Shown here: positions 1,778-17,677 of the stretch, piece by piece | How the letters are laid out: each line of letters opens with the position of its first letter | Numbering within the stretch: the stretch's first letter is position 1 | Origin: Desulfuromonadaceae bacterium | GTDB lineage: Bacteria > Desulfobacterota > Desulfuromonadia > Desulfuromonadales > Desulfuromonadaceae | Reading direction: 5' to 3' | Assembly (NCBI GenBank): GCA_034006915.1 | Contig: JAVERW010000004.1 | Span: 8,458 to 72,457, forward strand | Length of the DNA: 64,000 nt | Program-made: the position numbers and the translations under genes | The notes under the pieces: model-generated | Database searches by the model: none | What the model was told of the DNA's origin: nothing | What the model saw: only the letters and a program-made list of their open reading frames with translations

Positions 1778-2389
1778 CTACGCTGCACCCTGCAGGTGAC
1801 TCACCACGCCTACAACCGTACCTTGGACGACGACACGATCTGTAGTATAGAACTGGGGCAGGTAGTCCGAGTTCGCTGGCTGGAGGCGTATTTTACCATC
1901 CTTTTCGTGGAACAGGCGCTTCAAGGTCGTGGCTGTGTTATCCACCAGGGCTACAACCAATTCTCCATTCCGCAACTGTTTGGCGGGTTTGACCACCACC
2001 AGAGCACCATCAAGGATCCCATCTTCCTGCATGGAATCACCATTTGCCTTGAGCAGATAATGCTCCGGTCCCAGAAGCAGGTTGCCAAGGTCAATGTGTT
2101 CCTCGCCTTCGGATTCTTCCATAGGCAGGCCTGCACTGATGTAGCCGAGCAAAGGCAGGGAGGTAGTCGATGGCATCTGCTCAGCCGCATCCCCCAGCAC
2201 CAACAGTCCATCTTTGTTGCGCGCGAGAAATCCTCGGATAATCAGGGTCTGCACCATCTTGTGCACCCCGTTAATTGAGGACGAGCCAATTCCTGCAGCA
2301 ATGTCCCGGATGGACGGGCTGATGTTCTTCTGCTCTATAGATTCCGCTACAAAGCGAAACACCTTCTCCTGCTTGGTTGTCAAAGCCAT
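1778..2389 (-). CDS. lexA: LexA-family repressor (wHTH plus S24 self-cleaving peptidase)
   Basis: Start chosen at ATG 2389 (MALTTKQEKVF...) preceded by GGAGAG. Has an N-terminal LexA-like wHTH, an Ala-Gly site in LLGYISAGLP, a GDSM serine motif and a TLKRL lysine motif. About 203 aa, LexA length rather than UmuD length. Confidence 0.85.
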   Translation of the reverse strand: MALTTKQEKVFRFVAESIEQKNISPSIRDIAAGIGSSSINGVHKMVQTLIIRGFLARNKDGLLVLGDAAEQMPSTTSLPLLGYISAGLPMEESEGEEHIDLGNLLLGPEHYLLKANGDSMQEDGILDGALVVVKPAKQLRNGELVVALVDNTATTLKRLFHEKDGKIRLQPANSDYLPQFYTTDRVVVQGTVVGVVSHLQGAA

Positions 2390-2460
2390 ATTCTCTCCTT
2401 CTGTTGCCATGGTAAGGGGTAAACGCGAAGTGAAACGATAATGAAACGCTGACACTATAG

Positions 2461-2534
2461 GAACAGAAGTGGAACAGAGTCAAGCAGAGAAAGGCAGAAC
2501 GTGAAATGACTTGAGGGAGAAACCTCTGTTCCAC
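2461..2534. promoter_or_regulatory. candidate SOS operator region upstream of lexA-umuC
   Basis: GAAC-N7-GAAC direct repeat at 2461-2475, the form of the alphaproteobacterial LexA box GTTC-N7-GTTC. Also an 11-bp perfect inverted repeat GTGGAACAGAG (2469-2479) / CTCTGTTCCAC (2524-2534). Lies 70-145 nt upstream of the lexA start. Confidence 0.25.
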
Positions 2535-2654
2535 ATAGTTCATTACATATCAGTTTTATTATTAGAATTATTGCACTTAAGAGAGGGTTGGGTGTAGGTT
2601 TAAGATTTTTCAGATCATGGATTAACTGTGCATATAAAATAGAGAAACAATATC

Positions 2655-2849
2655 ATGCTTATAACCCTGAAAGACCTACCATCCAACGCCAGAGGATTTG
2701 CGCAGTACTGCATTGACAACTTTGAATTCAGAGATGTTGTAGAGATGGTTTATGCTGACAAGCACGAAGATCATTGTGCTCAGTTCGATATTACCCACGA
2801 GCAATGGCAGGATGCGGTGTATGTGGTGATTAAGCAGATGGGGAAATGA
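2655..2849 (+). CDS. small hypothetical protein (64 aa)
   Basis: ATG-initiated ORF in an otherwise empty intergenic region. No recognisable motif. Confidence 0.3.
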   Translation: MLITLKDLPSNARGFAQYCIDNFEFRDVVEMVYADKHEDHCAQFDITHEQWQDAVYVVIKQMGK

Positions 2850-2999
2850 GAGACGGTCTTGAATTGTGGTCAGTATTGAATGTTTTTAAAGTTATGCTTT
2901 TTTCTTTATTTCAATAAAATCAAGATTGTTAGTGAACGGTACTACGCTACGCACCACACCGGCAGCTTATCTAGGGCGTTATTCGATGGAGGGGAAAGG

Positions 3000-3419
3000 A
3001 TGAGCGAGAATCTCCTGATAGGAGTGAAGCACGAGCTTGAAGTAGCAAGCGAACTGACGGGGGCCGGTCTAGTGGTTTCACTTCCCTTGGTCGATATCGG
3101 GGTTGACCTACTTGCATCCCGCAAAGATTTCTCGAAGACAGTACCAGTTCAAGTGAAATACAAGGAAAAAGAACAGAATATCTTTTTCACAGGTAAAGAA
3201 ATAGCCGCATACAGCGCAAAGAACGTCTATATAGCTTATATCCTTGCCGACTCCAAATGGTACATGCCGTTCAGCGTGTTTCTTGACCACGCAGAGCAAC
3301 CAGCCAGCCGAAAGGATCAAGCTGGATACATAGTGCTGGCGAGAAAAAGTGCTGAGCTCGCTGAGTATTCTGGTGAAAAGGGCTTTGCGAGGATGGTCGA
3401 GTTCATAAATGGTCCATAA
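3000..3419 (+). CDS. PD-(D/E)xK nuclease-fold protein (Hjc/restriction-endonuclease-like)
   Basis: Start at ATG 3000 after GGAGGGG. Motif series GVKHELEVASEL ... PLVDIGVDLLA ... VQVKYK fits the E / D / (E/Q)xK core of this fold. Confidence 0.5.
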   Translation: MSENLLIGVKHELEVASELTGAGLVVSLPLVDIGVDLLASRKDFSKTVPVQVKYKEKEQNIFFTGKEIAAYSAKNVYIAYILADSKWYMPFSVFLDHAEQPASRKDQAGYIVLARKSAELAEYSGEKGFARMVEFINGP

Positions 3420-3527
3420 TAAGCCCATCAGCGCTGACAACCAAAAGCCACGCTCCTTAGTCGCTCTGCTTTGGGCTGCGGGTTATTGGTAGCGTGAGGT
3501 GGTACTGAGAGGTCGTACAATCCTGGC

Positions 3528-4367
3528 ATGTCGAAGAAATCCGAAATCCTCCGAAATCAGCGAGCCTGGGCAAAAAGCGTGGGTCTTAAGTCAGATGAAA
3601 AAGGTTATTTGCCAACCTATGAAGCGAACCTGTTTCAGTCGATGAATCCTGAAACAAAAACCTCGTTCGATCAGGGCAGTGGGGCGGAGCTGGTAGATAC
3701 TGCGAGATATCCAGCCAAGATGAGGGCTTTGCATTCCTCCTCGGCGCTGGCAGTTAATTTCTTTGATTGGTGGGTGGCGAACTCAAATGGCCCGCTCCTT
3801 GAAGCCTTGGGCATCCAGAGTCCCGCTGGTTGCCGGGTCAGATTTGAAGCGCAATATCCAACCGGGTTGCCCGGGAATCCGCCCAATCTTGATGTCACGC
3901 TTGGTCTCCCCGATGGAGAGATCATCGGCATAGAGAGTAAGTTCACCGAGTGGCTCACGCCGAAACCGAAGAGCAAGAATCAATTCAAGGGGAAGTACTT
4001 CCCTGAAGACCCCGGCGTCTGGAGCTTGGTATCATTGCCGAAGTGTCAGGCACTAGCGGAATAGATTAGGGACGGCTTAACTACCTTCCGGTATCTTGAT
4101 GTGGCGCAGCTTCTCAAACATGCGCTTGGTCTTGCAACCGGCGTCGGCACACACTTCCGCCTGTTCTACATATTTTTCGATGCCAACTGTCCCGAGGGCG
4201 AGGTGCATTGGCATGAAATCCGAGAATTTGCACTGGCCGTTGGTACGGAATTGAAGTTCCAAGCAATTTCATATCAATCGCTACTGGATCAATTTGAGTA
4301 TTCGGTTTCAGGTTCAGAGGCATACCGCCAGTATCTTAAGTCGAGGTATTTCGCAGGTGCCGCCTAA
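3528..4367 (+). pseudogene. PD-(D/E)xK nuclease-like gene interrupted by one in-frame TAG
   Basis: ORFs 3528-4064 and 4101-4367 are in the same frame, separated only by TAG 4062-4064. Translation continues ...QALAE*IRDGLTTFRYLDVAQLLKHALGL. Motifs: KMRALHSSSALAVNFF, PDGEIIGIESKF, DVAQLLKH. Confidence 0.5.
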
Positions 4368-4622: not shown

Positions 4623-4988
4623 CTAACAAGACGGGAGGTTATTCAGCCTCAGAATAACACCTTTTAACCCCAGGTCCTTGCACAGCTTCGTGCATCCGTA
4701 GGGAGACATGACACGAAGAACTTTCTTCTGCGTAACCAGATACCGCTTCCATTGCCCAGGCCGTTCAACCACACATAAAAACTGCTCTGTTTTTCCCCGA
4801 ATTTTATCAGGAACTGAAATCCCCTCTGGCAAAGCACCAGGGTAGTTACTAGGATTGGCGGCGATAGCCGCGTATTCCGGAGAATCGGGCAGGGGAGCCT
4901 GTATTTCTTCAAAGGTAAGCTTAAGATCCTGAATCTCCCGGATTAAAAGCTTTAATTCAGGTTCCTGGATAATATCTTCGCCCCTCAT
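4623..4988 (-). CDS. hypothetical protein (121 aa)
   Basis: ATG ORF downstream of the relaxase on the same strand, with a repeat-rich upstream region. No recognisable motif. Confidence 0.35.
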   Translation of the reverse strand: MRGEDIIQEPELKLLIREIQDLKLTFEEIQAPLPDSPEYAAIAANPSNYPGALPEGISVPDKIRGKTEQFLCVVERPGQWKRYLVTQKKVLRVMSPYGCTKLCKDLGLKGVILRLNNLPSC

Positions 4989-5265: not shown

Positions 5266-8200
5266 TCACATCCCCGGAGAAGGAGAGTCATCCCATTCAG
5301 TTGATTCCTGCTCTTCGCTTAAATTTTCTGTCTGTTTAAACGGTTCAGATAACGGTTCAGATAACGGTTCAGATAACGGTTCAGATAACGGTTCAGATAA
5401 CGGTTCAGATAACGGTTCAGATAACGGTTCAGATAACGGTTCAGATAACGGTTCCGGTAATGGTTCCGGTAATGGTTCCGGTAATGGTTCCGGTAATGGT
5501 TCCGGTAATGGTTCCGGTAATGGTTCCGGTAATGGTTCCGGTAATGGTTCCGGTAATGGTTCCGGTAATGGTTCCGCCGCAGCTACTCTTTTCTGTGTAT
5601 GTGTCTGCACAGGCTGGATACCGTGACGTTGAACACTGTTTATCCTGGCATCAAAAATGGGTGTCTGACTGATTTTAACAAGGTCTGTAACTGCCTGAGT
5701 TGTTTGTCTGCTTAACTCCCTTTTGCCCTGCATTTTTGTAATCAGGGCTGCAAACTCTGCATCGATTTTATTCTGGCGCCGGTAGTGATTCGTAAAACGC
5801 GCCGGGCTTTTATCTCCTCCGAACTTAATGCTCTCCTGCGCTGACTGTTCCATCCAGCGATCCACAGCATCCAGCGCCTGCTGCTCCAGTTCGCTTAAGG
5901 CATTTATGCCGGGGCAATTTTGTCTGCACCGGCGGATCCCCGAATGAAACACCTCTCGGATCGAACTCAGGGCATCATTGACTTTATTGCGCTCAATCTT
6001 AGGCGCCTTGGAAAACATCCTATACTCACGCACCAGTGCTGCGCGCTTCTGCATGATCTCATCTTCAGCCCGATTACGCTTTTCTACAACTGCGCCGAGA
6101 TCCCGTACCCAGTCTGAGGCACCAACTTCCTTTTGTATCCCCGTATTAAACAGCCGCAGGGGACTATCCTTATGCGCCCACTGCGAAGCCCTGGTGAGCA
6201 TCTTGTCGCGGTTGTCGGTATAGACCATGACATTATTTTTATTCCGGGAGATCCCCACCAGAAACTCGTTTTTGCTCAAAATAGGAGAATCGGAAGGGGC
6301 GTGGTACATAACCAGGCGTTCAACAGACTGTCCCTGGCTTTTATAGGTCGAGAGCGCATAGCTGTAATCAAAGTACGGATAGCTTGTCACATTCCAGCGC
6401 ACATAGCGTTCGGTTCTTCTCCCTTCCTCATCCACCAGACACGCCAAGATATCTCCATCCTCACTGATCTCATCGATTACAGCCTGCGAGCCGTTAAATA
6501 CCTTCTGCGCTCCTTTGCTGACAGACCTGCCGTCTCTATCGGTAAACTGAACCTCGCGGGATTCATTTTTCAGGAACACAATCCGCTCCCCGCAGGCAAA
6601 CTCCTTCTCCTTCTCATGCCCACGCGCATTCGAGACAGTGAATGTTTCCCCTTCGGATGATAATATCCCGGCATCAAGCAGGTGCTCACGAATCAGGTCG
6701 TTGAACGTGTCCTTGCTCTTGTTGGTTCCGGTTATCAGCAGGGCAGGGGTGTTTGAATCCCTGAAATACTCCATATACTCAGCCACCACTTTCCGGGTGC
6801 GTTCATCTGCATTGGGGGTCGCAGAGACCGCCTCACTCTCCTGAAGGATTCCTACCGCCCTGTGTACATCATCGTGGCGGGTGATAGCCTCCACTGCTGC
6901 CAGCTCAGCAGCATTTCTCTGTCTGCGTATCTGCTGCAGCGTCCAGGTCTGCATCCCTTCATCCTGCCAGGTTTCAAACGGCTTGCCTGCAGACACCCCC
7001 GGCAACTGATTCCTGTCCCCAATCAGTACAATCCGGGCTCCGAACAACTTCGCCGCATGACATAACTCGTTGGCCTGAATAGAACCGAGCATAGATGCTT
7101 CATCCACCACAATAAGATCGCCGCGTTTAATACGGCCAATATGTGCAAGGCGCGCCAGGGTTCTGCTATTACCTTCTTCTCTGGCTCGCGCATAGTTGCG
7201 CACATCAATCAGAAACTGAGCCACGGTATTGCACTTCAAGCCCGTTTCATCACCCAGCTTCTTTGCCGCATCCCCGCTTACACAAAGACCTGTAATGCGC
7301 TCACGTCCCAGAGTCTGCGCCACAGCAAGCAGCATGGTGGTCTTACCCGTTCCCGGATCGCCCTGCACCCCGGTGATAAAATCACATGCCTTAAGAATCC
7401 CCAGCGCTGCATCTCTCTGTTCCCCTTCAAAAGAGAACGGAAACAGGTTCCTGGTTGCGTGCATTAGACGCGCTTCTACATCATCTTCATCTGCAGGGAG
7501 AAACAACTCCTTGCCCTGGCGCAGAAACTCCCGGTTCTGTGTTTCAGCGCGCAGGTGCTTTACCTGCACAAGCTGTTCATGCTGATAGTCACCTTCAAAG
7601 TTATCCTGACCGGGAAGGCGGATCAGTGCATATTTTTGTAAAAACCAGGGCAGGTGTTTCAGGACATCTGCATGGTTAACAACAGGGCAGGGGGTAGAGA
7701 TACTGTTGTGTTTAAGAGTCCCGGCATATTTAAGAACTGCCGCAACCATCTCCTTGCGCGTAGTAAGCGCACTTATGTCCAGATATTCATCCAGAGCGGC
7801 CCGGATAATCTCTTTTACTTTATTCTCCATGTCCGCATTGATCTCGATATTACCCATGGTATGTGTACCGCTGCTCGCTTCTTCCATGCATATCTTTACC
7901 CCCAGATCCTGAGCAGTTTCTCGCCACTCTAGACGCAGCAGTTCCGGGTCTATGTCTACTTTGCGTTTCCGGTTTTTAAGGCATGCATCCTGGCGCTGTT
8001 TTGCTGAGGCATCCTTGCGGCAAAGACCCCTGTCAGCAAGGTTGGCAGCGATCTCAGCGTAGCGTTTCGAGAACCCCTCAATCTGTGCGCGATCGATTGC
8101 CCCAACCTCGAAACCATCTTCGGTATTTCGGGTTCGGATTCCCCGCTGTTCCAGCTCTGATCTAAGCGCAGCTTTGTACACCAGATCAAAGTGCTTTTGA

Positions 8201-8724
8201 TTCCGATAGAAGTAGCGAAAATCCACTGCGCGCACCTGCTCTTCTCCGTCAATAATGCACGCATTGGCTATCAGACAATGACTGTGCAAGAGGGGATCAT
8301 TGGATCGACTAAGTGAGTGGAGAATGGGAAGGGCAATCATCCCCTTTGCCTGATAAGAATGGGTAACCCCGCGTTCCTTTTTTACCCCCCGAAAGAAGGC
8401 GTTATCTTCAATGTATTTGAGTACCGCATTGCACGCATTGCGGTGTGCACTTACCGCAGCATCACTGATCTGTTTATCCCCTACGGCAAACAAAATTGAA
8501 ACACTCTTGGGTGCGCTGAAGGTCAGGTCAAAGGCTTTCACTTCCCGGTCCTTAACCAAGTGCGAAAAAGCTTCGCGTTTGGACACATTCAGATGCTCAA
8601 AACCGAAGAGTTTATTCCCGTTTCCCAACACCTCAATAGTGTCCTGCTCCACAGGAAAATAGTAATCATCCCTGGCGTAATAACTCTCAATCCTGCCTGC
8701 CTTAACCGTGATCCCGCTGACCAT
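5266..8724 (-). CDS. MOBF-family conjugative relaxase/helicase (TrwC/TraI-like)
   Basis: 1152 aa. N-terminal relaxase motifs [30 protein letters not shown] (His triad) and [12 protein letters not shown] are colinear with R388 TrwC. Central RecD-like helicase has Walker [15 protein letters not shown] and Walker [10 protein letters not shown]-terminal PLPE/PLSE repeat tail. Confidence 0.92.
5342..5576 (-). repeat. perfect 12-bp tandem coding repeat inside the relaxase 3-prime end
   Basis: On the + strand: 9 units of GGTTCAGATAAC (5342-5449), then 10 units of GGTTCCGGTAAT (5450-5569) plus a partial unit. Encodes (PLPE)x10 followed by (PLSE)x9. Confidence 0.95.
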
Positions 8725-8790
8725 ATTTATCTCCCTATGTGGTGAAAAAACTGTACCCGTTCCAAAGCGCGTGAATACCGCAATCCTGCG

Positions 8791-9033
8791 TCACAGACAT
8801 TTCTGAAAGCCATAGCATTTCAGGTGTTTGCCATCTTTAGGAGCGCCCGCCGGGTTCAGATGTGTGGAGCAGGGCAAAGGTTCACAAAGTGGACCGCAGC
8901 CGTGCTCAATAAAGTGAGCGCAGGCGAACGCCATATCCATGCTCTTCTGTGTGGCATTCACCTCAATGTCTCGTTGGACAGCACTCTTTAAATTCTGCCT
9001 GCTTAACAAAAAGTGGTTTTTTCGTGTTGACAT
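8791..9033 (-). CDS. possible ribbon-helix-helix relaxosome accessory protein
   Basis: Small ORF directly upstream of the relaxase on the same strand. From MSTRKNHFLLSRQNLKSAVQRDIE the beta-strand/helix pattern is RHH-like. Weak, based on position. Confidence 0.25.
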   Translation of the reverse strand: MSTRKNHFLLSRQNLKSAVQRDIEVNATQKSMDMAFACAHFIEHGCGPLCEPLPCSTHLNPAGAPKDGKHLKCYGFQKCL

Positions 9034-9117
9034 TATCAATGCGTTGATCAAGAATATACACAGTCAATATTAAATATCAACGCACAAAAACAAATATAGA
9101 CGGGAGGGAAGGCGGTT
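9034..9117. promoter_or_regulatory. candidate oriT / divergent promoter region
   Basis: AT-rich gap between the divergent relaxase operon and the + strand array. 9-bp inverted repeat TGCGTTGAT (9040-9048) / ATCAACGCA (9076-9084). TTGACA at 9027-9032 with AAGAAT 17 nt downstream. No nic site recognised. Confidence 0.3.
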
Positions 9118-9495
9118 TTGAGAATAGACCAGGAGAGAATCGAAAGGACACTGAAGATGAGCAGAAAAAAGAGCATCGAGAGCAGAATCAAAAACAAGAC
9201 ACTCAAAGATATCCGCAACGAATTGAGATTTTTTGAAAAAGGAGTAATCGCAGATGCCACCCGCGCAGCAGGTGAGATAGGGGTGGCGATATTTAGGGAA
9301 GATCCAGAGCATCAGATCTTCCAGGATTATCCGCAATTCAGAGAAAAGATTTCAGAATTATCCGATGTGCTGGGGCGGATTAACGTCAAAATTAGCAAAC
9401 GAGAAAATGGCACTGATACGGGACAAAAAAACAATCCGGTAAGCACCAAAAAGGAAAATGACTTTGTGCGCGATATCCGGGACGAAGAACTTTAA
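9118..9495 (+). CDS. hypothetical basic protein, first gene of the + strand array (StbA-position)
   Basis: TTG start at 9118, or ATG 9157 (MSRKKSIESRIKNK...). Lys/Arg-rich N-terminus. No motif recognised. Confidence 0.35.
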   Translation: MRIDQERIERTLKMSRKKSIESRIKNKTLKDIRNELRFFEKGVIADATRAAGEIGVAIFREDPEHQIFQDYPQFREKISELSDVLGRINVKISKRENGTDTGQKNNPVSTKKENDFVRDIRDEEL

Positions 9496-9517
9496 AAAAA
9501 GTGAAAGGAGAAATGGC

Positions 9518-10180
9518 ATGCTCACAATGATACACGGAGATAAGGGCGGCGTAGGCAAGTCCATGGTGGCGCAGGTACTGCTGGATTATCGGATCGCAAG
9601 CAGTCAGGAACAAAGCACAATTCTGGTGGAATCTGATACCAGAAATCCGGACGTTTCCAGGCTGTTTGGCAAATATATCCAGGTTGAGGAAATCAACCTA
9701 AAAAGCCACGACGGGTGGATGGAACTGGCAGATCTGCTGGAGCAGAATCGCGACAAAAATGTGGTTGTTTCCCTTCCGGCCGGGGTTGGCAATCACATAG
9801 AAACCGAAGGGCAGTATCTGTCTGATTTGCTCGCAGATCTGGGGCATGAATTGAAGGTGTACTGGCCGATCAACCGTAACAAGGATTCAATAATTCTCCT
9901 GAAAGAATTTATGGAATCGCCCCTGGGCCAGAGAGCAGATCTTACTGTCGTATTGAACGGATTCTTCGGTAAGCAGGAGCAGTTTCAGCTCTGGAACAAA
10001 AGCAATACCCGCCAGCAACTTCTGGAACAATATAACGGCAGGGAGGTGTTTCTCCCCGAATTGCATCACCGGGTCGTGGATGTGATCCGCGAGCCGTATA
10101 CCATGTGCAAGGGCTTGCAATATTCCGTGCGCGTCGAGCTGGAGCGCTGGCTACGCAGGGCTTATCAGATTGTGTATTGA
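9518..10180 (+). CDS. ParA/MinD-like P-loop ATPase (plasmid StbB/TraL-like position)
   Basis: Start at ATG 9518 after GGAG. Deviant Walker A in MIHGDKGGVGKSMVAQ. Confidence 0.65.
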   Translation: MLTMIHGDKGGVGKSMVAQVLLDYRIASSQEQSTILVESDTRNPDVSRLFGKYIQVEEINLKSHDGWMELADLLEQNRDKNVVVSLPAGVGNHIETEGQYLSDLLADLGHELKVYWPINRNKDSIILLKEFMESPLGQRADLTVVLNGFFGKQEQFQLWNKSNTRQQLLEQYNGREVFLPELHHRVVDVIREPYTMCKGLQYSVRVELERWLRRAYQIVY

Positions 10181-10213
10181 GGAATGAGTTTTGGCTGTGA
10201 AACAGGAGGATAT

Positions 10214-10816
10214 ATGAGTAATCATGCAGTTGGATCAAGCAGGCAGGCAGAGATCGACATCTTCGACGAGCTTGATGATGTCGATTTTGAAGAAGAATAC
10301 GTGGATGAAACAGCGTACGTAGAAAACCATGCTTACATGTACAATAGCAATACCAGGACCCCGCTGCAAAAATTTGAAGACTGGATGGGGCGGGAACCAA
10401 CTGCCCAGGAGCGGGAGGTGTTCCACGATCTGCAGCGCAATTTTGACCTTGAAGATGATGATACTCTGTGGGTGATACTGGTGGGACTGGAGTACTATTT
10501 GACTTTGTACAAAGAGATTCCCGAACGCATCAGTGATCAGATATCAACAAATATCGCGGAGACTATTAGCAAGGTAAAAAAACTTGCAGAATCGGAAACC
10601 GATTCATTATTCGTCCACGCCCAAAACATATATCTGGATCTGGATAATTATCATCACAAACTGAAGATCAATGCCCAGAGATCGATTCGGAAAAGCGTTC
10701 AGGAGGAGATCCTGAGGTTGAGAAAAGAGTATCGCCGAAACTGCGTATCCTATATTGCAGTCGGTACGCTGTTCTTCACCATCGCCTGGGCAGGAGTTAA
10801 AGCAGGGTTGCTGTAA
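10214..10816 (+). CDS. hypothetical protein with very acidic N-terminus and C-terminal TM helix
   Basis: ATG 10214 after AGGAGG. Acidic run EIDIFDELDDVDFEEEYVDETAYVE. C-terminal hydrophobic segment YIAVGTLFFTIAWAGVKAGLL. Confidence 0.45.
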   Translation: MSNHAVGSSRQAEIDIFDELDDVDFEEEYVDETAYVENHAYMYNSNTRTPLQKFEDWMGREPTAQEREVFHDLQRNFDLEDDDTLWVILVGLEYYLTLYKEIPERISDQISTNIAETISKVKKLAESETDSLFVHAQNIYLDLDNYHHKLKINAQRSIRKSVQEEILRLRKEYRRNCVSYIAVGTLFFTIAWAGVKAGLL

Positions 10817-10846
10817 TGGTATTCAAAGGAGTATCACTTTAGAGCT

Positions 10847-11653
10847 ATGGCTATCTATTTCACCGCCGATGAGCATTTCGGCCATACAAAAATCATGCAG
10901 TATTGCAAGCGCCCCTTCGATTCCATCGAAGAGATGGACCAGACAATCATCGAGCGCCACAATGCCGTGGTACGCCCGAAAGATACCGTGTATCACTTAG
11001 GGGACTTTTCGTTCTGGAACCACGGAAAATACCTAAGCCGGCTCAAGGGCAAGCATATCCTCATCCTGGGTAACCACGACCGCCTTAAAAACACCAAGGA
11101 GGGTTGGCTGGAAGTCCATCAGGTAATGCGCCTAAAATGGCAGGGCAAGGTTCTGTGGCTCAGCCACTATCCCCATCTCGTATGGCCGCAGAGCCATTAT
11201 GGAAGTTGGCACTTGTTCGGGCATGTGCATGGTTCCATGCAAGGGGTAGGGCTGAGCATGGATGTAGGCGTGGATGCCAACGACTACAGACCCGTGAGCA
11301 TCGAGAAAGTTGCAGAGGTTATGAACCAGCGCGGAGCAACCGCGCAACAATTAAAAGATGCCGTTGACAAAGAATCTCTCAAGCCCTACGCGAAGAAATA
11401 TATCTGGTGGAAAACACCGGAAGAAGCGGTGGAGTACCCGCAGCGCGTAATAGCGCAGGTGATGAATATTGGTACTTTTGAGGATACCCAGGAGCTTGCC
11501 GACCTTGTGGGTAATGATGTGTTGCGCATGGTCATAGAACAAGCCGAGGTCGGACAATTCAATGGGACTTCCTGGTCTTATTGGCATTACCGCCTTGAAC
11601 TGTGCGAGATAGACCAGGTGCCGCCATTGCCTGAACGCAGAGGGTTAAGATGA
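10847..11653 (+). CDS. calcineurin-like metallophosphoesterase with C-terminal unnamed WWKTPEEA domain
   Basis: Motifs FTADEHFGH, HLGDF, LGNHD, GHVHG. The C-terminal ~85 aa (YAKKYIWWKTPEEAVEYPQRV...WSYWHYRL) recurs as ORF 16750-17058. Stop overlaps the next start (ATGA 11650-11653). Confidence 0.8.
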   Translation: MAIYFTADEHFGHTKIMQYCKRPFDSIEEMDQTIIERHNAVVRPKDTVYHLGDFSFWNHGKYLSRLKGKHILILGNHDRLKNTKEGWLEVHQVMRLKWQGKVLWLSHYPHLVWPQSHYGSWHLFGHVHGSMQGVGLSMDVGVDANDYRPVSIEKVAEVMNQRGATAQQLKDAVDKESLKPYAKKYIWWKTPEEAVEYPQRVIAQVMNIGTFEDTQELADLVGNDVLRMVIEQAEVGQFNGTSWSYWHYRLELCEIDQVPPLPERRGLR

Positions 11654-12402
11654 AACCAAAACATTTGAGTGACGCAGAACTAATAGAAGCAATTGAACAG
11701 CTTCTACATTCAGGCGGTAGCGCCTCAGAAGAAGAAATCAAGGAAAATGCCCTTGCCTACATCAAAGGTCAGAAGCATTTACTACCCGCAAGATTTTTTG
11801 TGCGGCAAAATCTGGACAAAAAAGCTTTTTTCATGGCAGGAGGCCCGGGTGCCGGCAAAAGTGAAACCGCAGTAAATATTGGCAGGGTGGAGAGAGTGGA
11901 TATTATTGGTACAGACGCGTTGAGAAAAATTTGTCCATTCTACAGCGGTGCAAACTCAAACCTGTTCCAAGGAGCTGCATCAAAGGGAGTGTCATACCTT
12001 CTTGATTTCGCCTTCAAGAATAAAGTGTCTTTCATTTTGGATGGCAACTTTTCTGACTACCGCCTGCAAAAAGAAAACGTCTCAAGAGCTGCCAGTTGTG
12101 GCTATAACATAGAGATCCTGTTTGTCCACAGAGATAAGCAAGTTGCCAGAGATTACACCCTTGCTCGTGAAAGAATCGAAGGCCGCGTAGTACCTGAAGA
12201 TGTGTTTGAGGCAAAACTTAAAGGGGCAATAAAAACAACAATGCGAATATTGGATGAATTCCCGGACATTGCTTTTCGCTTTTTCGACCTGGAATCAAGG
12301 CAAATCCTGAGAGGCGAAAAAGCGATACAGAAACTTCATTGCCTATCTGAGCAGAAGCCAGTACCTGAACGTAGAGTTTGGCCTGGAGGTGACAACCAAT
12401 GA
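11650..12402 (+). CDS. zeta-toxin-family P-loop kinase
   Basis: Walker A FFMAGGPGAGKSETA. Overall layout fits the zeta toxin/AAA_33 kinase family. ATGA overlaps with both neighbours. Confidence 0.7.
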   Translation: MKPKHLSDAELIEAIEQLLHSGGSASEEEIKENALAYIKGQKHLLPARFFVRQNLDKKAFFMAGGPGAGKSETAVNIGRVERVDIIGTDALRKICPFYSGANSNLFQGAASKGVSYLLDFAFKNKVSFILDGNFSDYRLQKENVSRAASCGYNIEILFVHRDKQVARDYTLARERIEGRVVPEDVFEAKLKGAIKTTMRILDEFPDIAFRFFDLESRQILRGEKAIQKLHCLSEQKPVPERRVWPGGDNQ

Positions 12403-13034
12403 AACCGAAAAGAATAATTCTTGTGCGCCACGGAGAGTCACAGGCTAACGCTGATCCGGACCATCACGAGTTTACCCCCGATTATGCTATGCACTTAACC
12501 GAGACAGGCAGGCAGCAGGCGCACATGACCGGGAAAACCATCCTTGATCTGGTAGGTAACGAAAGCGTGCGTGCCTATGTATCCCCCTGGTACCGCACCA
12601 GGCAGACCTTTGAGGAAATAGAGGATGTGCTCGGCGAACGTGTAGTCAGAACTCTGGAAGATCCCCGCATTAGAGAACAGGAGTGGGGACATCTGCGTAG
12701 CGCCGATGAAACACACGCGCTATCCAAAGAGCGGATTGCCTATAGCCCGTTTTACTACCGTCTACCCGATGGAGAATCAGGCGCGGATGTATATGATCGG
12801 GTCAGCACTTTTATGGAAACCCTGCACCGTGATTTTGAAAAAGAGGATTTCCCGGATAATGCACTGATTGTCACCCATGGCATGACCTTGAGGATCTTCC
12901 TTATGCGCTGGTTCCATTGGACCGTTGAGTATTTTGAGCGGGTGCAGAACCCCGGAAATGCTGAAGTGATTGTGATGGAGAGAGACCACCAGGGGCAATA
13001 CGAGGTGACTACACCCCTTCGATTGCGTGACTGA
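12399..13034 (+). CDS. histidine phosphatase superfamily protein (phosphoglycerate-mutase-like)
   Basis: IILVRHGESQAN (RHG catalytic motif) and a downstream THG (IVTHGMTL) motif. Confidence 0.8.
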   Translation: MKPKRIILVRHGESQANADPDHHEFTPDYAMHLTETGRQQAHMTGKTILDLVGNESVRAYVSPWYRTRQTFEEIEDVLGERVVRTLEDPRIREQEWGHLRSADETHALSKERIAYSPFYYRLPDGESGADVYDRVSTFMETLHRDFEKEDFPDNALIVTHGMTLRIFLMRWFHWTVEYFERVQNPGNAEVIVMERDHQGQYEVTTPLRLRD

Positions 13035-13137
13035 ATACATGTGTAATAACAGTGCCTTGACATAATAAACTAGAAACCTAAAACACGATAAACTAGTAAA
13101 TCTTTTCTCATCGTTCTATCAGCAGAAGGCTAGAAAC

Positions 13138-13956
13138 ATGAAAATCCTCCCCTATGCAGACCTGCACATAGAGTTCAGTGCCTCACTGGATACCGCCACG
13201 CCAACCACCCTCGAAGAACAGAACGCCATGAGTGCCGCCGGCCGCCAGGCCGATGTGGTTATCCTTGCCGGGGATACCTATACCAAAGGCCGGGGACCCG
13301 AAATTGCCTCTAAGATGTTCCCCGGCAAACAGGTTGTGATGGTGGCCGGGAATCACGAATATTACGGCCAGGGATACCCGGTACATACCTCCAGACTCAA
13401 ACACAAGGCAGAGGAACATGGCATCCACTTTCTGGAAAACCAGGCCGTTGAGATAGACGATGTGGTGTTCCTCGGCTGTTCTCTATGGACTGACTGCAAA
13501 CTCTGGGAAAGCGGCCCATATAAAGGACTATACGGATTCAAGGAAACCGTTGCCGATGTGTACAGTGCCATGAACGACTACCGCAAGATCTACTATAAAG
13601 ACCGGTTCGACAAAAGAGAGCTGGTACCGCAGGACTTTATCAAGGTTCATCTGGATTCAGTAAGGTGGCTGCGCGAGCAGTTCGAGAAATATCAGGAGCG
13701 CAAGGTGGTTGTGGTAACGCACCATGCCCCATCTATCCGCTCCGTTGCCGACACCTACCAGCAGAGCGTGTATTCAGCCGCGTATGCCTCACACTTAGAT
13801 GATCTGGTAGCAGAGTCGGGCGCAGCACTATGGATTCATGGACATTCGCATGGATTCTTCGACTATCACATAGGTAATACGCGGGTGGTCTGCAACTCCA
13901 GGGGCTACCCGTTTGAAACCACCGGATTCAAGACCGATATGCTGATTGAGGTATGA
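13138..13956 (+). CDS. calcineurin-like metallophosphoesterase (second copy, different subfamily)
   Basis: Motifs YADLHIEF, LAGDTY, AGNHEYY, VTHHAP, HGHSH. Confidence 0.8.
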   Translation: MKILPYADLHIEFSASLDTATPTTLEEQNAMSAAGRQADVVILAGDTYTKGRGPEIASKMFPGKQVVMVAGNHEYYGQGYPVHTSRLKHKAEEHGIHFLENQAVEIDDVVFLGCSLWTDCKLWESGPYKGLYGFKETVADVYSAMNDYRKIYYKDRFDKRELVPQDFIKVHLDSVRWLREQFEKYQERKVVVVTHHAPSIRSVADTYQQSVYSAAYASHLDDLVAESGAALWIHGHSHGFFDYHIGNTRVVCNSRGYPFETTGFKTDMLIEV

Positions 13957-14276
13957 GCGGAAAAGAAAGTAAACATCCCATGGACAAAGGGGAAATAAAG
14001 GAAATCCTCGCTGCCGATATGGCGTATTTGTCCAGGGAATACGGGGTTGAGAGGATAGGGCTGTTCGGTTCCTACGTCCGGAATGAGCAACGCCCGGATA
14101 GTGACATTGATTTGCTGGTGGAGTTTGCCAGCAACAGACCGATTGGCTTGTTCCGATTCGTTCATCTCAAAAACCATCTATCCGATTTACTCGGCACTAA
14201 AGTGGATCTGGTAACACCTGCAGCACTAAAGCCGATTATCGGGGAGCAGATTCTAAACGAAGTTGAGTATATATGA
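13953..14276 (+). CDS. MNT-type nucleotidyltransferase (NTP_transf_2, MntA-like)
   Basis: GLFGSYVRNEQRPDSDIDLLVEF (GS...DxD). ATGA overlap with the upstream phosphoesterase. No HEPN gene follows. Confidence 0.8.
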   Translation: MSGKESKHPMDKGEIKEILAADMAYLSREYGVERIGLFGSYVRNEQRPDSDIDLLVEFASNRPIGLFRFVHLKNHLSDLLGTKVDLVTPAALKPIIGEQILNEVEYI

Positions 14277-14403
14277 CCTGGAGCCGGAACCAGTTAATGT
14301 AAAATAAAATTTGCAGATTTAGACTTTTAGGAAAATTCATTTTACGTTATGCTGAATCCGAAAAGCAGACTGCGACCCTGAAAAGCTCCGGAGTATTCAA
14401 AGC

Positions 14404-15447
14404 ATGAAAATAAAACGGGTATTATTTGATCCCCACGAAAGGGAGGTAAACGCGCTCGGGAAAAGAATCAAGGAGGCCCGTTTACGCCGGCGTTTCTCCA
14501 TGAAAAGGGTGTGTGAAAACGCAGGAATCTCCCGACCCACCCTGAGCAAGATTGAGAATCCGAATGGGGACGCCTCGGTGTGTTTCGGGCACCTGGTTGA
14601 GGTCCTGCGCGTTTTAGGTCTGGCATCCGACCTGTCCCTGATTGCCAAAGAAGATAAGCTGGGCAGGAGTATTCAGGACAATGCCCTGCATCAAGCCAAA
14701 CGAGCGCCCCGCAAGAAGAACAAACACGTGCGACTCATAGCCATTGGCGACATCCACGGGCACAGAGAAAAGCTTGATAATCTCCTGCACCAGATACAGC
14801 CGCGCGAAGAGGACAGGTTCGTCTTTTTAGGCGACTACATAGATAGAGGTCCGGATAGCAGAGGCGTGATAGAGGATCTGATAGACTTCAGGCTTTTATA
14901 CCCCAAAACAATATTCCTGCGCGGCAACCACGAACAGCTCTTGATCGACACCCTGATCAGCTGCCGGGTCATTGAAGGAACACCACTTCACAAAATATCA
15001 CCAGAGTGGAGAAAGGACGTAAAATATGAAACCGATGCCATGCTGTTTGTGAAAAATGGTGGTGACAAAACCCTGAAAAACTACGATGCAGAGGTTGTCA
15101 GGGATGGCTTTAAACATACCCTGATCGGCACGTTACCCCAAAGTCACATAGATTTTTTGACAGACACAAAACTCTATTATGAATACGGGGATTTTCTTTT
15201 TGTCCACGCCAACACAGACCCCCTCAACCCCCTGGAAGAGAACGACCCTTTTGCATTTCTGTGGGATCGTCCCACTCAATACCGGGAAGGGAAAACCCTG
15301 ATTGCCGGACACACGCCAACCGAAGAAGGTTATACCCCGGATATTTCTTCGGGAGTTATAAGACTCGACACCGGTGCTGCCTATGGCGGACCCCTGAGCG
15401 CCATGGATATATTCTCGGGGCAGATGTGGCGCTCACAAAAGGGTTAA
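14404..15447 (+). CDS. XRE-family HTH fused to PPP-family Ser/Thr (PrpA/ApaH/lambda-like) phosphatase
   Basis: N-terminus LGKRIKEARLRRRFSMKRVCENAGISRPTLSKIEN (HTH_3-like). Then GDIHGH, GDYIDRGPDS and RGNHEQ PPP motifs. Confidence 0.8.
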   Translation: MKIKRVLFDPHEREVNALGKRIKEARLRRRFSMKRVCENAGISRPTLSKIENPNGDASVCFGHLVEVLRVLGLASDLSLIAKEDKLGRSIQDNALHQAKRAPRKKNKHVRLIAIGDIHGHREKLDNLLHQIQPREEDRFVFLGDYIDRGPDSRGVIEDLIDFRLLYPKTIFLRGNHEQLLIDTLISCRVIEGTPLHKISPEWRKDVKYETDAMLFVKNGGDKTLKNYDAEVVRDGFKHTLIGTLPQSHIDFLTDTKLYYEYGDFLFVHANTDPLNPLEENDPFAFLWDRPTQYREGKTLIAGHTPTEEGYTPDISSGVIRLDTGAAYGGPLSAMDIFSGQMWRSQKG

Positions 15448-15469
15448 ATGATCTTCTTTCCCCTTGTCC

Positions 15470-16201
15470 ATGAATCAAAGGGACACCGCCATGCGACTCA
15501 TAGCAATAGGTGACATCCACGGCCACAACGACAAACTGAAGTCCATCCTGGAGCAGATAGATCCGCAGCAGTCAGACCAGTTCGTTTTTCTGGGCGACTA
15601 TATAGATCGTGGGCCGGACAGCAAGGGCGTGATTGATACCCTCATTGAATTTAAGGCTGAATTTGGGCGTAGCGTATTACTGCGCGGAAATCACGAGCAA
15701 CTCATGCTCGATGCTCTGGAAGAGCACTGTCCACAGTACTTCCCTGAAGGTTTTCAACCCACCTGGAATCCCTCGGAGAGTGGCATATATAGGAATTGGG
15801 GCAACTTCGAGCTTTGGGCTCAGAACGGCGGCTGGAAGTGTCTTGAAAGCTACGGGGTCAAAAGAGAAGAACTGACCAATCTGCCTGGCTGCTGGGACTT
15901 CGTACCTTCCGAGCATATTGCCTTTATTGCGCAGACCGAACTTTATTACCGCCAGGGAGGTTTCCTGTTTGTCCATGCCGGAGCAGTTGAAACCCTGCCC
16001 CTCGATGAACAGATGGAAACGATTTTGTGGGAACGCCACGCTCCACCGGGGATAAACGAGATCCATGTTGTAGGTCATGAGCCCTGTCCCGACTCAGAAC
16101 CATACTTTGAAGAGATGCGCTACAATCTGGATACCGGAGCAGGGTATAACAGAAAACTCACTGCTTGCGATGTGCTTACGAAGAGATATTGGCAGGCATG
16201 A
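15470..16201 (+). CDS. PPP-family Ser/Thr phosphatase (paralog of the catalytic half of 14404-15447)
   Basis: ATG 15470 preferred over TTG 15464. Motifs IGDIHGH, LGDYIDRGPDS, LRGNHEQ, VGHEP. Confidence 0.8.
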   Translation: MNQRDTAMRLIAIGDIHGHNDKLKSILEQIDPQQSDQFVFLGDYIDRGPDSKGVIDTLIEFKAEFGRSVLLRGNHEQLMLDALEEHCPQYFPEGFQPTWNPSESGIYRNWGNFELWAQNGGWKCLESYGVKREELTNLPGCWDFVPSEHIAFIAQTELYYRQGGFLFVHAGAVETLPLDEQMETILWERHAPPGINEIHVVGHEPCPDSEPYFEEMRYNLDTGAGYNRKLTACDVLTKRYWQA

Positions 16202-16753
16202 AACAGGTTGAGAACCTTAGAGAATATATACTGTCCGGGCAGAATGTGGTTCTGTATGGAGAGAAGAGCGCAGAGAAAACGACTCTGGTGTCTGAGGCCC
16301 TTCGCCTCGTTTCGGATAGCCACGATGCGGTAGTTGTTGATCTCAGCAATGTACGGAAAGGCGATGAAGTTGTTTCCAGGATTTCAGGAGCCTTGAAACG
16401 CATCCCTGTGAGAAAGCGCCCCAAAGAGGCTGTGCGGCGCTTTTTTCTTTTTTCGTATGCTTTTGCCTGCCGGAGCAAAGCAGGATTGGCAGGATTCGAT
16501 GTATGAGGTATTCGCCCACATCGAAAGGGCACACCAGGAAAGCCCCCTGGTTGTTTTCCTTGACGAGTTCCAGGATGTGCTTAACTGTCAGGACAGCGAC
16601 CGCCTGCTTGCCCTGTTGAGATCCTACATCCAGCATCAGCCTGACATCCCCTATCTCTTTGCCGGAAGCACCAGGCACCAGATGTATGACATTTTTATAG
16701 GTTACAGCAGCCCCTTCTTCAAGTCTGTACTTCCGATGGATTCAGAGCTATGA
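16198..16753 (+). pseudogene. frameshifted and truncated AAA/Arch-type ATPase
   Basis: Frame 1 gives MKQVENLREYILSGQNVVLYGEKSAEKTTL, a degenerate Walker A. After the T-rich run at 16441-16453, frame 2 continues with a Walker B-like VVFLDEFQDV. The product is far shorter than intact family members. Confidence 0.5.
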
Positions 16754-17058
16754 CATGTATTTCAAAGGTAGACCCTGATTTTCTCAAGCACTACGCGAAG
16801 AAATATATGTGGTGGAAAACACCGGAAGAGGCAGTAGAATTCCCACGGCGTGTAATCTCGCAGGAGATGAACCTGGGCGTGCGGGAAGATATGGAGTCAT
16901 TGGCCGCAGCCGTAGGTGATGACGTTCTGCGCGAGGCAATATCAGAAGCCGAGATTGGCGAGTTTGATGAACGCCAATGGCACTACTGGCATATTCGCCT
17001 GAGGCTGTGTAGAAGAGATGAAGAACCGCCTCCCATGCCCGTGCGCCGGGTGGAATAG
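16750..17058 (+). CDS. stand-alone copy of the WWKTPEEA...YWH domain
   Basis: 102 aa. HYAKKYMWWKTPEEAVEFPRRVISQEMNLG...QWHYWHIRLRL aligns along its length with the C-terminus of ORF 10847-11653. Confidence 0.5.
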   Translation: MTCISKVDPDFLKHYAKKYMWWKTPEEAVEFPRRVISQEMNLGVREDMESLAAAVGDDVLREAISEAEIGEFDERQWHYWHIRLRLCRRDEEPPPMPVRRVE

Positions 17059-17060
17059 CC

Positions 17061-17335
17061 CTGCAGCTACCCGAGATATTAAAATATGAAAAGCGAAACC
17101 TTCTACCCGGAGATATTGATTTCAGCAAGAGCCTTATCAGAGCCTACCTAAATGTTACGCAGTCATTTGCCGCTGTAGCAGATCTGCTCCAGAAGGACGA
17201 GAAGAGTATTTGGCGCATGCTCAGTCCCAGCGGGAATCAGAGTCTGAAAAACTTTATTACCATTCTTTAAATGTGTAGAGTCGAAGAACATCTTAAGCTG
17301 AAGGTTCTCTATCGTTATTAAACTCATACCAACAG
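17061..17335 (+). pseudogene. remnant of an addiction-module antidote (HigA-family HTH) gene
   Basis: Frame 3 reads ...DIDFSKSLIRAYLNVTQSFAAVADLLQKDEKSIWRMLSPSGNQSLKNFITIL*, resembling the ...AYL...IA..tG.sR.slYr.LS..GNP....i..iL.. pattern. There is no canonical start. A trailing HLKLKV lies in another frame. Confidence 0.25.
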
Positions 17336-17479
17336 TTGAGTCCATAGTGCCCTGGCAGTAAACAGTTTTTTCGATGAGGCGATATTCACCACATATAGCC
17401 TTATATTGCAACTGATGACAATAGATGATGACACCCATTATGTTTTTTGTTAATGTCGTTGTTGCATTACATATAAAAT

Positions 17480-17677
17480 AATCGGAATTGTGGAAGACGG
17501 TGAAAATCCGTCGCGGACCCGCCACTGTGTTCGGCGTTCATACGTCGTCAGTCAGACACACGACCGATTCATTTGTTCGTCCCGTCTTCGTGGTTATGAG
17601 ACGGCAGAACCAGATACGTGGATTAAATACGGAATCCCCGCAACCTCTATTGTCTATTGGTTGCGGGGATTTTTTTA
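17480..17677 (+). promoter_or_regulatory. cobalamin riboswitch (compact aptamer) with terminator expression platform, leader of the cob operon
   Basis: Core GGAAGACGGTGAAAATCCGTCGCGGACCCGCCACTGTG and a B12-box-like AGTCAGACACACGACCG. P1 is AATCGG (17480-17485) / CCGATT (17564-17569). A terminator hairpin follows. Confidence 0.8.
17634..17677 (+). terminator. riboswitch-controlled intrinsic terminator
   Basis: 12-bp stem ATCCCCGCAACC (17634-17645) / GGTTGCGGGGAT (17659-17670) followed by a T-run, 23 nt before the cobC ATG. Confidence 0.8.

Follow-up and report, generated by a model that had tools for sequence, protein, structure and literature searches.

A Phosphoesterase-Rich Gene Array Beside the Candidate oriT of a TrwC/MobCDE-Type Mobilizable Island in a Desulfuromonadaceae Bacterium

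Introduction

Anti-defence islands in the leading, that is, first-transferred, regions of conjugative elements are already known (PMC11541004). A 2024 survey reported that toxin-antitoxin genes and orphan antitoxins are enriched in such regions, and that anti-defence, single-stranded DNA-binding protein (SSB), methyltransferase and toxin-antitoxin genes are oriented there in such a way that the incoming transferred strand (T-strand) serves as their template (PMC11541004). The main text of that survey makes no mention of phosphatases, phosphoesterases or kinases (PMC11541004). Here we describe a stretch of 64,000 nucleotides (hereafter the window) from a Desulfuromonadaceae bacterium (GenBank assembly GCA_034006915.1, contig JAVERW010000004.1, positions 8,458 to 72,457), in which a run of genes at positions 9118–17058 of the window, most of it an array dominated by phosphoesterases, lies next to the candidate origin of transfer (oriT) of a mobilizable island.

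Two plasmids offer a layout with which this locus can be compared. In R388, the strand that runs from IR2 to nic has trwABC behind it and stbABC ahead. The leading region of RP4 begins with traKLM, and its relaxase operon (traJ-A) trails (PMC7314908). As for the enzymes of the array, a metallophosphoesterase of mycobacteriophage A10ZJ24, Gp48, was shown to be needed for evading host defences (PMC12287305).

The strongest statement that the sequence permits is structural: the array is best described as the cargo arm beside the oriT candidate of a TrwC/MobCDE-type mobilizable island. It consists of two layers. The first is a heritable trio of phage-type phosphoesterases, namely two metallophosphoesterases (MPE1 and MPE2) and a PPP phosphatase. 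The second is a lineage-specific, shuffled set of toxin-antitoxin parts, in which we include a cassette of a 98-aa domain (C-dom) and a zeta-type kinase, a lone MntA-like gene, a HipB-like helix-turn-helix (HTH) domain fused to a PPP phosphatase (HTH::PPP), a histidine phosphatase, a dead P-loop gene and a second C-dom (Table 1). With regard to function, we tentatively regard the array as an element-serving counter-toxin or counter-defence cassette that may aid survival in new hosts, and we assign this reading a probability of roughly 0.4.

Phosphoesterases of the Array

The array holds five clustered phosphatase genes, as stated in an initial annotation that had been made from the window alone. 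No other metallophosphoesterase open reading frame (ORF) occurs in the remaining 56 kb, and the clustering is not due to chance. The three unrelated phosphatase folds that the annotation had counted are in fact two, represented by four metallophosphoesterases, two of them of the PPP type, and one histidine phosphatase. All four match PF00149 or PF12850, PPP being part of the calcineurin-like metallophosphoesterase fold. The family assignments themselves (Metallophos, His_Phos_1, PPP, Zeta_toxin and an MntA-like minimal nucleotidyltransferase, MNT) hold in Pfam, NCBIfam and PHROG, with the second PPP gene placed at 15464. All credible genes of 9118–17058 were likewise found on the + strand, both in the ORF list and in independent gene calls on the source contig.

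In translation, the catalytic motifs of all five phosphohydrolases are intact. Both PPP proteins carry GDIHGH, GDYIDRGPDS and RGNHE, and both also match PPP phosphatases in the PDB. MPE1 is composed of the enzyme proper (residues 1 to ~170), which matches the solved structure 1xm7 (1.6e-14), and the C-dom (~11363–11650) that follows it. In two relatives, L084 and L168 (handles of this kind denote the loci used for comparison), the MPE1 enzyme occurs without C-dom. The sequence of MPE2, which is the most conserved cargo gene of the element family, gave no match among solved structures.

Homologues of MPE1, MPE2 and PPP were found in 1,713, 193 and 608 phage records, respectively. Most of these records are large virulent phages, and the carriers include jumbo, rV5-like, Twort/K-like and A511-like phages as well as T5-like Vibrio phages. 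The identity of the three proteins to those of phages is 25–43%. MPE2 homologues are present in at least 509 viral-contig stretches, and 11 of 80 viral loci, with near-duplicates among them, have homologues of MPE1 and MPE2 side by side. A contig listed as viral in IMG/VR (L234, 4492–15553) encodes an AAA_14/DUF4143 ATPase, adjacent MPE1- and MPE2-like genes, HipB and HipA. It also encodes a 1198-aa RecD-like helicase and resembles an island more than a phage; it ties the phosphoesterases to HipBA.

Sibling Elements and Selection

The window belongs to a metagenome contig, and proteins identical to its own were found on a contig of 84 kb (ENA ERZ27247324, k141_508516). The sibling element L168, whose MobD is 49% identical to that of the window, has orthologues of MPE2, PPP and MPE1 on the same strand, 4–7 kb past mobE. 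L166 (MobD 52%) has orthologues of MPE2 and PPP 8–10 kb off, on the opposite strand, and L164 (MobD 62%) has no phosphoesterase orthologues within 10 kb. The orthologues of the 15464 PPP in L166 and L168 were recovered at 2e-69 and 1e-80, respectively. The MPE2 orthologues of the same two siblings are 54–57% identical, with backbone MobD at 49–52%. Since the identity of MPE2 thus tracks the divergence of the backbone, inheritance with the element is suggested. The two close relatives L084 and L253 are without the second PPP gene, and HigBA follows the array in both.

The ratio of nonsynonymous to synonymous substitution rates (dN/dS) was computed against L084 and L253. It is 0.06–0.11 for MPE1, the histidine phosphatase (0.06–0.11), MPE2 (0.09–0.11), MNT (0.08–0.09) and the PPP part of the 14404 protein (0.08–0.10), and 0.18–0.20 for the HTH part of the latter. 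The backbone genes (relaxase, MobC, MobD and MobE) gave 0.07–0.26. For the stand-alone C-dom, the value against L253, derived from few substitutions, is ~0.58. Most of the array is thus maintained by purifying selection, and its right end, with the dead P-loop gene, is eroding.

Toxin-Antitoxin-Type Parts

The array contains no complete cognate toxin-antitoxin pair, there being no epsilon/PezA, HepT, HipA or AbiEii. The parts present are orphans: MntA without HepT, the HipB-like HTH without HipA, C-dom without AbiEii, and the zeta kinase.

The AlphaFold2 model of the kinase (pLDDT 87.6) is closest to the folds of zeta, PezT and AvrRxo1, the top Foldseek matches being 1gvn, 3q8x and 2p5t with TM ~0.6. 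Its Walker A motif is intact in translation, and its sequence gave no match among solved structures. An assignment as polynucleotide kinase is disfavoured, as polynucleotide kinase ranks 38th in the fold search. No epsilon/PezA gene stands upstream of the kinase; the slot is taken by the C-dom fused to MPE1, which has no Pfam or PDB fold match. The segment 11339–12398, i.e., C-dom plus kinase, is a 1,060-bp indel absent from L084, a relative with 87–91% DNA identity, in which MPE1 ends at 166 aa and overlaps the start of the histidine phosphatase. The simplest reading is that a cassette of a small antitoxin-position gene and a zeta-type toxin was inserted in frame behind MPE1. Conservation of the array around the kinase was considered and rejected: homologues of the kinase sit by HicAB/restriction-modification (R-M) genes, in a Sulfurimonas island and by CRISPR-Cas.

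The C-dom of MPE1 is 60% identical to the product of 16750–17058. Both belong to a family of ~98-aa stand-alone proteins that share WWKTP...YWHYRL...PPMPVRR and have no Pfam domain. In two unrelated chromosomal contexts (L251, 7001–7297, and L256, 5001–5297), a C-dom protein is encoded directly upstream of a short AbiEii nucleotidyltransferase (226–230 aa), with a 4-nt overlap. The AlphaFold2 model of C-dom is all-helical (pLDDT 90.6) and has no fold match among PDB structures. Since C-dom holds the antitoxin slot, the family may be an undescribed family of antitoxins. Its interpretation as part of a decayed ATPase or as a known AbiEi domain was rejected, C-dom being a stand-alone family with no Pfam or fold match. 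The decayed ATPase of the initial annotation is borne out for 16198–16753, and 16750–17058 is a gene of its own. The frameshift of the P-loop gene was judged against an intact 182-aa homologue in L253, and the gene calls of the source contig are split as well.

The nucleotidyltransferase has an intact GS/DxD motif and scores 53.2 bits with the NCBIfam model MntA_antitoxin, below its cut-off of 60. It has no HepT/HEPN partner; a gap of 127 bp follows, and then the HTH::PPP gene. The 14404 protein begins with 105 residues that share 41% identity, end to end over 94 residues, with an HTH protein encoded directly upstream of HipA in L234. In the array, no HipA was found by Pfam, and the HTH is fused to PPP instead.

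Relaxase, Accessory Module and Candidate oriT

The initial annotation had placed the array divergent from a TrwC-type relaxase across a spacer with a single doubtful ORF. The relaxase is borne out by its TrwC domain and by its nearest solved structure, TrwC of R388 (E 1.5e-30); the spacer, 8725–9117, holds two short overlapping ORFs. The translation shows YY..DDYY and H..NDPLLHSH, i.e., the Tyr pairs and the His triad, in line with the MOBF family. Near the C-terminus, PEPL/SEPL is encoded by a 12-nt tandem repeat (19.8 copies, 5339–5576). The copy number varies by assembly, the relaxase being 1152 aa long here, 1092 aa in k141_508516 and 1105 aa in L084. Downstream of the relaxase, a 121-aa gene with no family match (4623–4988, − strand), which is kept beside it in L084 and L168, may be a further backbone gene.

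The first part of the run, 9118–10816, which had been counted as cargo together with the rest, is predicted to be a relaxosome accessory module of the MobC/D/E (TraK/L/M) kind, in which the flanking pair is placed by position alone. Homologues of MobD were found in 296 plasmid records, many of them annotated as 'protein mobD', and the MobD-like gene is divergent from a TrwC relaxase in ~25 other loci. The proteins in the MobC and MobE positions (9118 and 10214) have no Pfam, NCBIfam or PHROG match. Two identifications with the Stb proteins were rejected, as the likeness of MobD to StbB is limited to the P-loop and the 9118 protein shows no similarity to StbA.

A promoter-like site at 9027 (Table 1) overlaps an 18-nt inverted repeat with arms at 9040–9057 and 9067–9084. 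Promoter-like sites are no more numerous here than in shuffled sequence, and the site is only suggestive; 9027–9084 is likely to be the promoter/operator of a unit formed by mobCDE and the array. The genes of the array are separated by 16–127 bp or overlap by 4 nt, and no convincing terminator was found inside the array. The phosphatase genes continue mobCDE on the same strand, and one long transcription unit that starts at the promoter-like site is plausible.

The spacer was aligned in six related elements, the MobD proteins of which are 49–95% identical to that of the window. The alignment has one strongly conserved block, 8845–8940, which is retained where the identity of MobD is just 49–62%. 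Its two motifs, GGTTCAGATGTGTGG and AAAGNGAGCGNANGCGANCGCC, are confined to the spacer between the relaxase and mobC, always in the same orientation, in a comparison of 170 loci. The hairpin between them shows compensatory changes at 11 of the 23 predicted pairs and folds as DNA with −20.2 kcal/mol (z = −2.1). The initial annotation had named the spacer as the position of oriT, and this placement is supported by the conserved block, the covarying hairpin, the single orientation and the occurrence in the spacer only. We consider 8845–8940 a good oriT candidate.

The array probably lies on the leading side of this candidate, i.e., it is probably transferred first, because R388 and RP4 share the layout. 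Two of the three candidate nick placements put it there. Against this stand several observations. Conservation is seen on both flanks of the hairpin and is lost over the 8–10 nt that directly follow it 3′ on the + strand. The assignment of the nick by likeness to nic of R388 and F is suggestive only, with weak matches on both sides of the hairpin, GAGCGTAT versus GTGCGTAT to the right and ATGTGT/GG versus GGGTGT/GG to the left. The R388/RP4 layout and the oriT candidate in the spacer favour the earlier claim of a leading region; the direction of the genes does not fit it. Leading-region genes are expected to face oriT, and all genes of 9118–17058 are on the + strand and point away from the oriT candidate, as do stbABC and traKLM on their plasmids, so that their expression must await synthesis of the complementary strand. 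In RP4, genes oriented away from oriT are only weakly induced on entry (PMC7314908).

Table 1. Features of the window around the candidate oriT and the phosphoesterase array (positions are those of the window).
Feature	Position	Strand	Matches and remarks
TrwC-type (MOBF) relaxase-helicase	5266–8724	−	Pfam TrwC PF08751 4e-48; AAA_30 2e-41
Candidate oriT core	8845–8940	+	GGTTCAGATGTGTGG, interrupted hairpin ~8867–8907, then AAAGNGAGCGNANGCGANCGCC
Promoter-like site TTGACA-17-AAGAAT	9027–9055	+	best sigma-70-like match within 8600–17600
MobC/TraK-position small protein	9118–9495	+	alternative start 9157; same place in sibling elements
MobD/TraL-like ParA-type P-loop protein	9518–10180	+	weak NCBIfam TraL match
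MobE/TraM-position protein	10214–10816	+	behind the MobD-like gene in 29 other loci
MPE1, phage-type metallophosphoesterase fused in frame to 98-aa C-dom	10847–11653	+	PHROG 547 4e-53
Zeta-toxin-type P-loop kinase	11650–12402	+	Pfam Zeta_toxin PF06414 7e-24
Histidine phosphatase, branch 1	12399–13034	+	His_Phos_1 2e-32; PHROG 12933; start overlaps kinase stop by 4 nt
MPE2 metallophosphoesterase, PHROG 1649 type	13138–13956	+	PHROG 1649 3e-50
Solitary MntA-like minimal nucleotidyltransferase (MNT)	13953–14276	+	NTP_transf_2 8e-15; PADLOC PDC-S09 3e-30
HipB-like HTH (residues 1 to ~105) fused to PPP phosphatase	14404–15447	+	HTH_31 and Metallophos; PHROG 246 NinI-like 1.5e-40
PPP phosphatase, lambda NinI-like	15464–16201	+	Metallophos 1.5e-19; PHROG 246 2.6e-42; alternative start 15491
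P-loop (AAA_16/AAA_22-like) pseudogene	16198–16753	+	7-bp insertion near 16447–16453 causing a frameshift
Stand-alone C-dom, 98–102 aa, without toxin partner	16750–17058	+	own gene family, not ATPase C-terminus
Right edge of island	17059–17442		blastn similarity to L084 ends at 17117; riboswitch starts at 17443

Possible Functions of the Array

Several points favour an element-serving counter-toxin or counter-defence role. The core enzymes belong to families typical of virulent phages and travel with the mobilization backbone, and the toxin-antitoxin parts under selection are mostly antitoxin halves. In addition, leading regions are known for their orphan antitoxins (PMC11541004), and a phage metallophosphoesterase has been linked experimentally to defence evasion (PMC12287305). 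By analogy with R388 and RP4, the + strand would be nicked to the right of the relaxase gene, and the arm with the array would enter the recipient first. The array genes, being sense on the T-strand, would be expressed once the complementary strand has been synthesised. The phosphoesterases could then strip marks made of phosphate or nucleotidyl groups, or degrade messengers built from nucleotides; the antitoxin-type parts could neutralise resident abortive toxins of the HEPN, HipA-like kinase and AbiEii-like classes, and the C-dom/zeta pair would add addiction.

A narrower version of this reading, which seems to us improbable, regards HTH::PPP and MPE1::C-dom as 'targeted erasers', in which an antitoxin-type domain docks on a resident toxin and the hydrolase undoes the covalent mark. 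For the HipB-like HTH, the target would be a kinase of the HipA class, whose Ser/Thr phosphate the PPP joined to it would take off. For C-dom, it would be a nucleotidyltransferase of the AbiEii/MenT class, and the metallophosphoesterase of the fusion would cleave off the nucleotide that the toxin had added. If they entered first during mobilization, together with the lone MntA and the free phosphoesterases, the two fusions would make up an anti-abortive-infection kit. If this were true, it would be an enzymatic kit of a type undescribed for conjugative elements.

The following points weigh against an element-serving role in either form. Among 1.84 billion representative proteins, HTH and PPP are joined in full length in the protein's own cluster only, and both fusions may be accidents of deletion. 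None of the known anti-defence families was matched: Acr, Ard/KlcA, PsiA/B, SSB and methyltransferase were absent from the ten ORFs of 9118–16201 according to Pfam, NCBIfam, PHROG and PADLOC, and from the three ORFs of 16165–17058 according to Pfam. Acb1 is a 2H phosphoesterase, Apyc1 has a metallo-β-lactamase (MBL) fold and AcrIII-1 is a DUF1874 ring nuclease. Pfam revealed no 2H, MBL-fold or DUF1874 domain, the phosphatases of the array being Metallophos and His_Phos_1 only. The supplement of the 2024 survey does not list metallophosphoesterase or PPP families as enriched in leading regions and contains only stray annotations of them (PMC11541004). The idea that the array occurs wherever MobD does had to be rejected. 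The survey for arrays beside a relaxase or oriT, which the initial annotation had proposed, recovered orthologues in L166 and L168; in ~150 more distant MobD loci from genomes and metagenomes the array is absent, with isolated weak cases in L030 and L143 as exceptions. The 26 kb of the element that can be inspected, which include 8.6 kb of the contig to the left of the window, showed neither a type IV secretion system (T4SS) nor an integrase. Of the functions needed for transfer, only a relaxase and an oriT candidate are visible, and the element, if mobile, would be mobilizable and not self-transmissible. Finally, there are signs of decay, namely the frameshifted P-loop gene and the elevated dN/dS of the stand-alone C-dom.

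The main rival, in our opinion somewhat unlikely, is that the array is ordinary defence or addiction cargo, i.e., a toxin-antitoxin and defence-island patch that stabilises the island and/or protects the host from phages and rival elements, with its proximity to oriT being meaningless. PADLOC matched the defence candidates PDC-S09 (3e-30) and PDC-S10 (1e-11), and NCBIfam gave weak matches to 'anti-phage phosphoesterase' and HalB. These matches count for the rival and against an element-serving role, as do the defence genes in the arms of the element and its siblings, with AbiE and HepT/MntA in the left arm and BREX, SMODS, R-M and NERD-kinase genes in siblings. Plasmid-borne homologues of MPE2 have Abi, R-M and umuDC genes as neighbours, which favours the rival, and they are located mostly on non-mobilizable megaplasmids, which speaks against an element-serving role. 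The rival also draws support from the zeta-toxin fold, C-dom, MntA and HipB-type parts within the array, from HigBA behind it in L084 and L253, and from the gene orientation, which rules out early expression from the T-strand. What it does not explain well is that MntA, HipB and the second C-dom lack their toxin partners, and that the single toxin-type gene left is absent from close relatives. Moreover, the core trio is typical of large virulent phages, which as a rule are without host-protecting immunity, and it is inherited with the mobilization backbone. In favour of the anti-defence cassette of the initial annotation are the phage-like, selected and sibling-conserved enzymes and the orphan antitoxin-type parts; against it, no member of a known anti-defence family was matched, and defence cargo is a live rival.

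A toolkit for the processing of nucleic acid ends or for nucleotide metabolism, employed on the element's own DNA or in the repair of RNA, is a markedly weaker candidate. Such a toolkit might use a kinase and phosphoesterases to heal 5′-OH and 2′,3′-cyclic-phosphate ends in a Pnkp-like manner, or act as a nuclease/phosphodiesterase on host or incoming DNA. In both PPP proteins, similarity to bacterial Pnkp, in its phosphatase part, was detected (9e-12 and 7e-8), as was similarity to a PHROG annotated as phage 'RNA ligase'; at 44 bits, the Pnkp match is far below the family cut-off of 750. The array does have a P-loop kinase, but its fold ranks with zeta, PezT and AvrRxo1, far above polynucleotide kinase, and it is dispensable in relatives. 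MPE1 weakly matches PdeM, a ligase-associated endonuclease, whereas no ligase or Hen1 is encoded in the array. Also in favour of the toolkit, phosphodiesterase activity and damage to the DNA of the host were reported for a phage metallophosphoesterase (PMC12287305).

The least probable alternative is a decaying junkyard on the margin of an island that no longer works, in which remnants and chance fusions share no common function. It would fit the frameshifted P-loop gene, the relaxed constraint on the stand-alone C-dom, the gain and loss of modules between close relatives, the lineage-specific fusions and the unseen T4SS and integrase, but it is hard to reconcile with the dN/dS values of MPE1, MPE2, MNT, the histidine phosphatase and the two parts of HTH::PPP, which at 0.06–0.20 do not exceed those of the relaxase and MobD, with the intact catalytic motifs and with the conserved oriT block.

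Island Boundaries and Neighbouring Genes

From position 1 to ~17.1 kb of the window, the guanine-plus-cytosine (GC) fraction is ~0.47–0.50, and from ~18 kb onwards it is 0.56–0.61; at the right edge it climbs from ~0.49 to ~0.59. A cobalamin riboswitch (RF00174, Rfam, 39.9 bits) at 17443–17581 heads a cob operon with CobC-like, CobU, CobT and CobS genes. The block described here thus lies at the right end of a low-GC foreign island inserted just upstream of the cobalamin operon of the host. It may have been inserted in the leader of the operon, right next to this first riboswitch; a second cobalamin riboswitch is found at 35272–35459. No tRNA was found at the right edge, and no att-like repeat longer than 14 nt is shared by the right edge and the left 17 kb. 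The left boundary of the island is not on the contig, and no near-identical DNA was found on plasmids.

Beyond the left end of the window, the 8.6 kb of contig encode IS21 IstB, an AP (apurinic/apyrimidinic) endonuclease, and AbiEii/AbiEi and HepT/MntA-type pairs. The left arm within the window (506–4064) encodes a LexA-like protein (DNA-binding domain plus S24 peptidase) with a UmuC-type Y-family polymerase, as well as a protein with a 'REase-ARP' nuclease domain. Operons resembling umuDC were noted to flank leading-region islands in the 2024 survey (PMC11541004).

The arms of the siblings hold other cargo of the conflict type: two DUF488 genes and DuOB in L084 (1576–4963), BREX PglZ/BrxL and SMODS in L166 (1–5507), SNF2, EcoRII-N, HATPase and HNH in L168 (1–3993), and type I R-M with a NERD-kinase in L254 (3394–9996). 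In L164 (5273–6871) and L166 (11394–12953), an AAA (AAA_5-like) protein of 519–532 aa is encoded directly behind mobE, at the position that MPE1 has in the window. On the host side of the window, a second low-GC stretch (40900–55000, down to 0.39) encodes Fic, an AbiEi/AbiEii pair and type I R-M with two HsdM and HsdR. This stretch is a separate defence island.

Implications

What seems to be new is that a chromosomal mobilizable island has an array which faces outward, is dominated by phosphoesterases and includes hydrolases fused to domains of the antitoxin type, in a lineage seen in few metagenome contigs. If the array aids establishment, the leading-region idea, so far one of inhibitor proteins on plasmids, would also cover hydrolytic enzymes, mobilizable islands in chromosomes, and genes for which the incoming single strand is not the source of expression. 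A role would then also be suggested for three families of phosphoesterases that are very frequent among large virulent phages and have hardly any function assigned to them. If, instead, the array is ordinary defence or addiction cargo, it cautions against identifying anti-defence genes by their proximity to oriT alone. Two concrete reagents for experimental work are the C-dom protein, whose fold is predicted with confidence and has no relative among solved structures, and the HipB::PPP fusion.

Comparison with Known Systems

Like the leading-region anti-defence islands (PMC11541004), the accessory run described here starts next to oriT on the side opposite to the relaxase, contains toxin-antitoxin and orphan antitoxin genes, and has homologues shared with phages. 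Unlike them, it is without Acr, Ard, Psi, SSB or methyltransferase genes and is dominated by phosphoesterases. It also differs from them in being sense on the presumed T-strand and facing outward, which excludes early expression templated by single-stranded DNA, and in being located on a chromosomal mobilizable island known from metagenomes only.

The arrangement of the backbone is that of R388 (trwABC, oriT, stbABC), RP4 (traJ-traI, oriT, traKLM) and mobA-E of the pTF-FC2 type, with the relaxase on one strand and a hairpin oriT in the spacer. As in R388 and RP4, the divergent accessory operon has three genes with a ParA-like P-loop protein in the middle, and the relaxase is closest to TrwC. 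Unlike in R388, no TrwA/TrwB-like genes lie upstream of the relaxase of the window. In the window, the divergent operon is continued by phosphatase and toxin-antitoxin genes over 6 kb, whereas the accessory operons of R388 and RP4 are followed by genes that face oriT, namely ssb and others in R388 and kfr/kor in RP4.

The phosphoesterases belong to the same families as those of phages (PHROG 547, 1649 and 246, the last being the lambda phosphatase family), with strong profile matches and intact motifs; the link to Gp48 of A10ZJ24 (PMC12287305) is at the family level only. Unlike the phage enzymes, two of those in the array are fused to antitoxin-type domains. In the same way, the zeta-fold kinase, the MntA-like nucleotidyltransferase, the HipB-like HTH and the 98-aa family in the AbiEii slot recall epsilon/zeta (PezAT), MntA/HepT, HipBA and AbiE, respectively, but unlike in these toxin-antitoxin families, the antitoxin-type parts of the array are either solitary or fused to a hydrolase.

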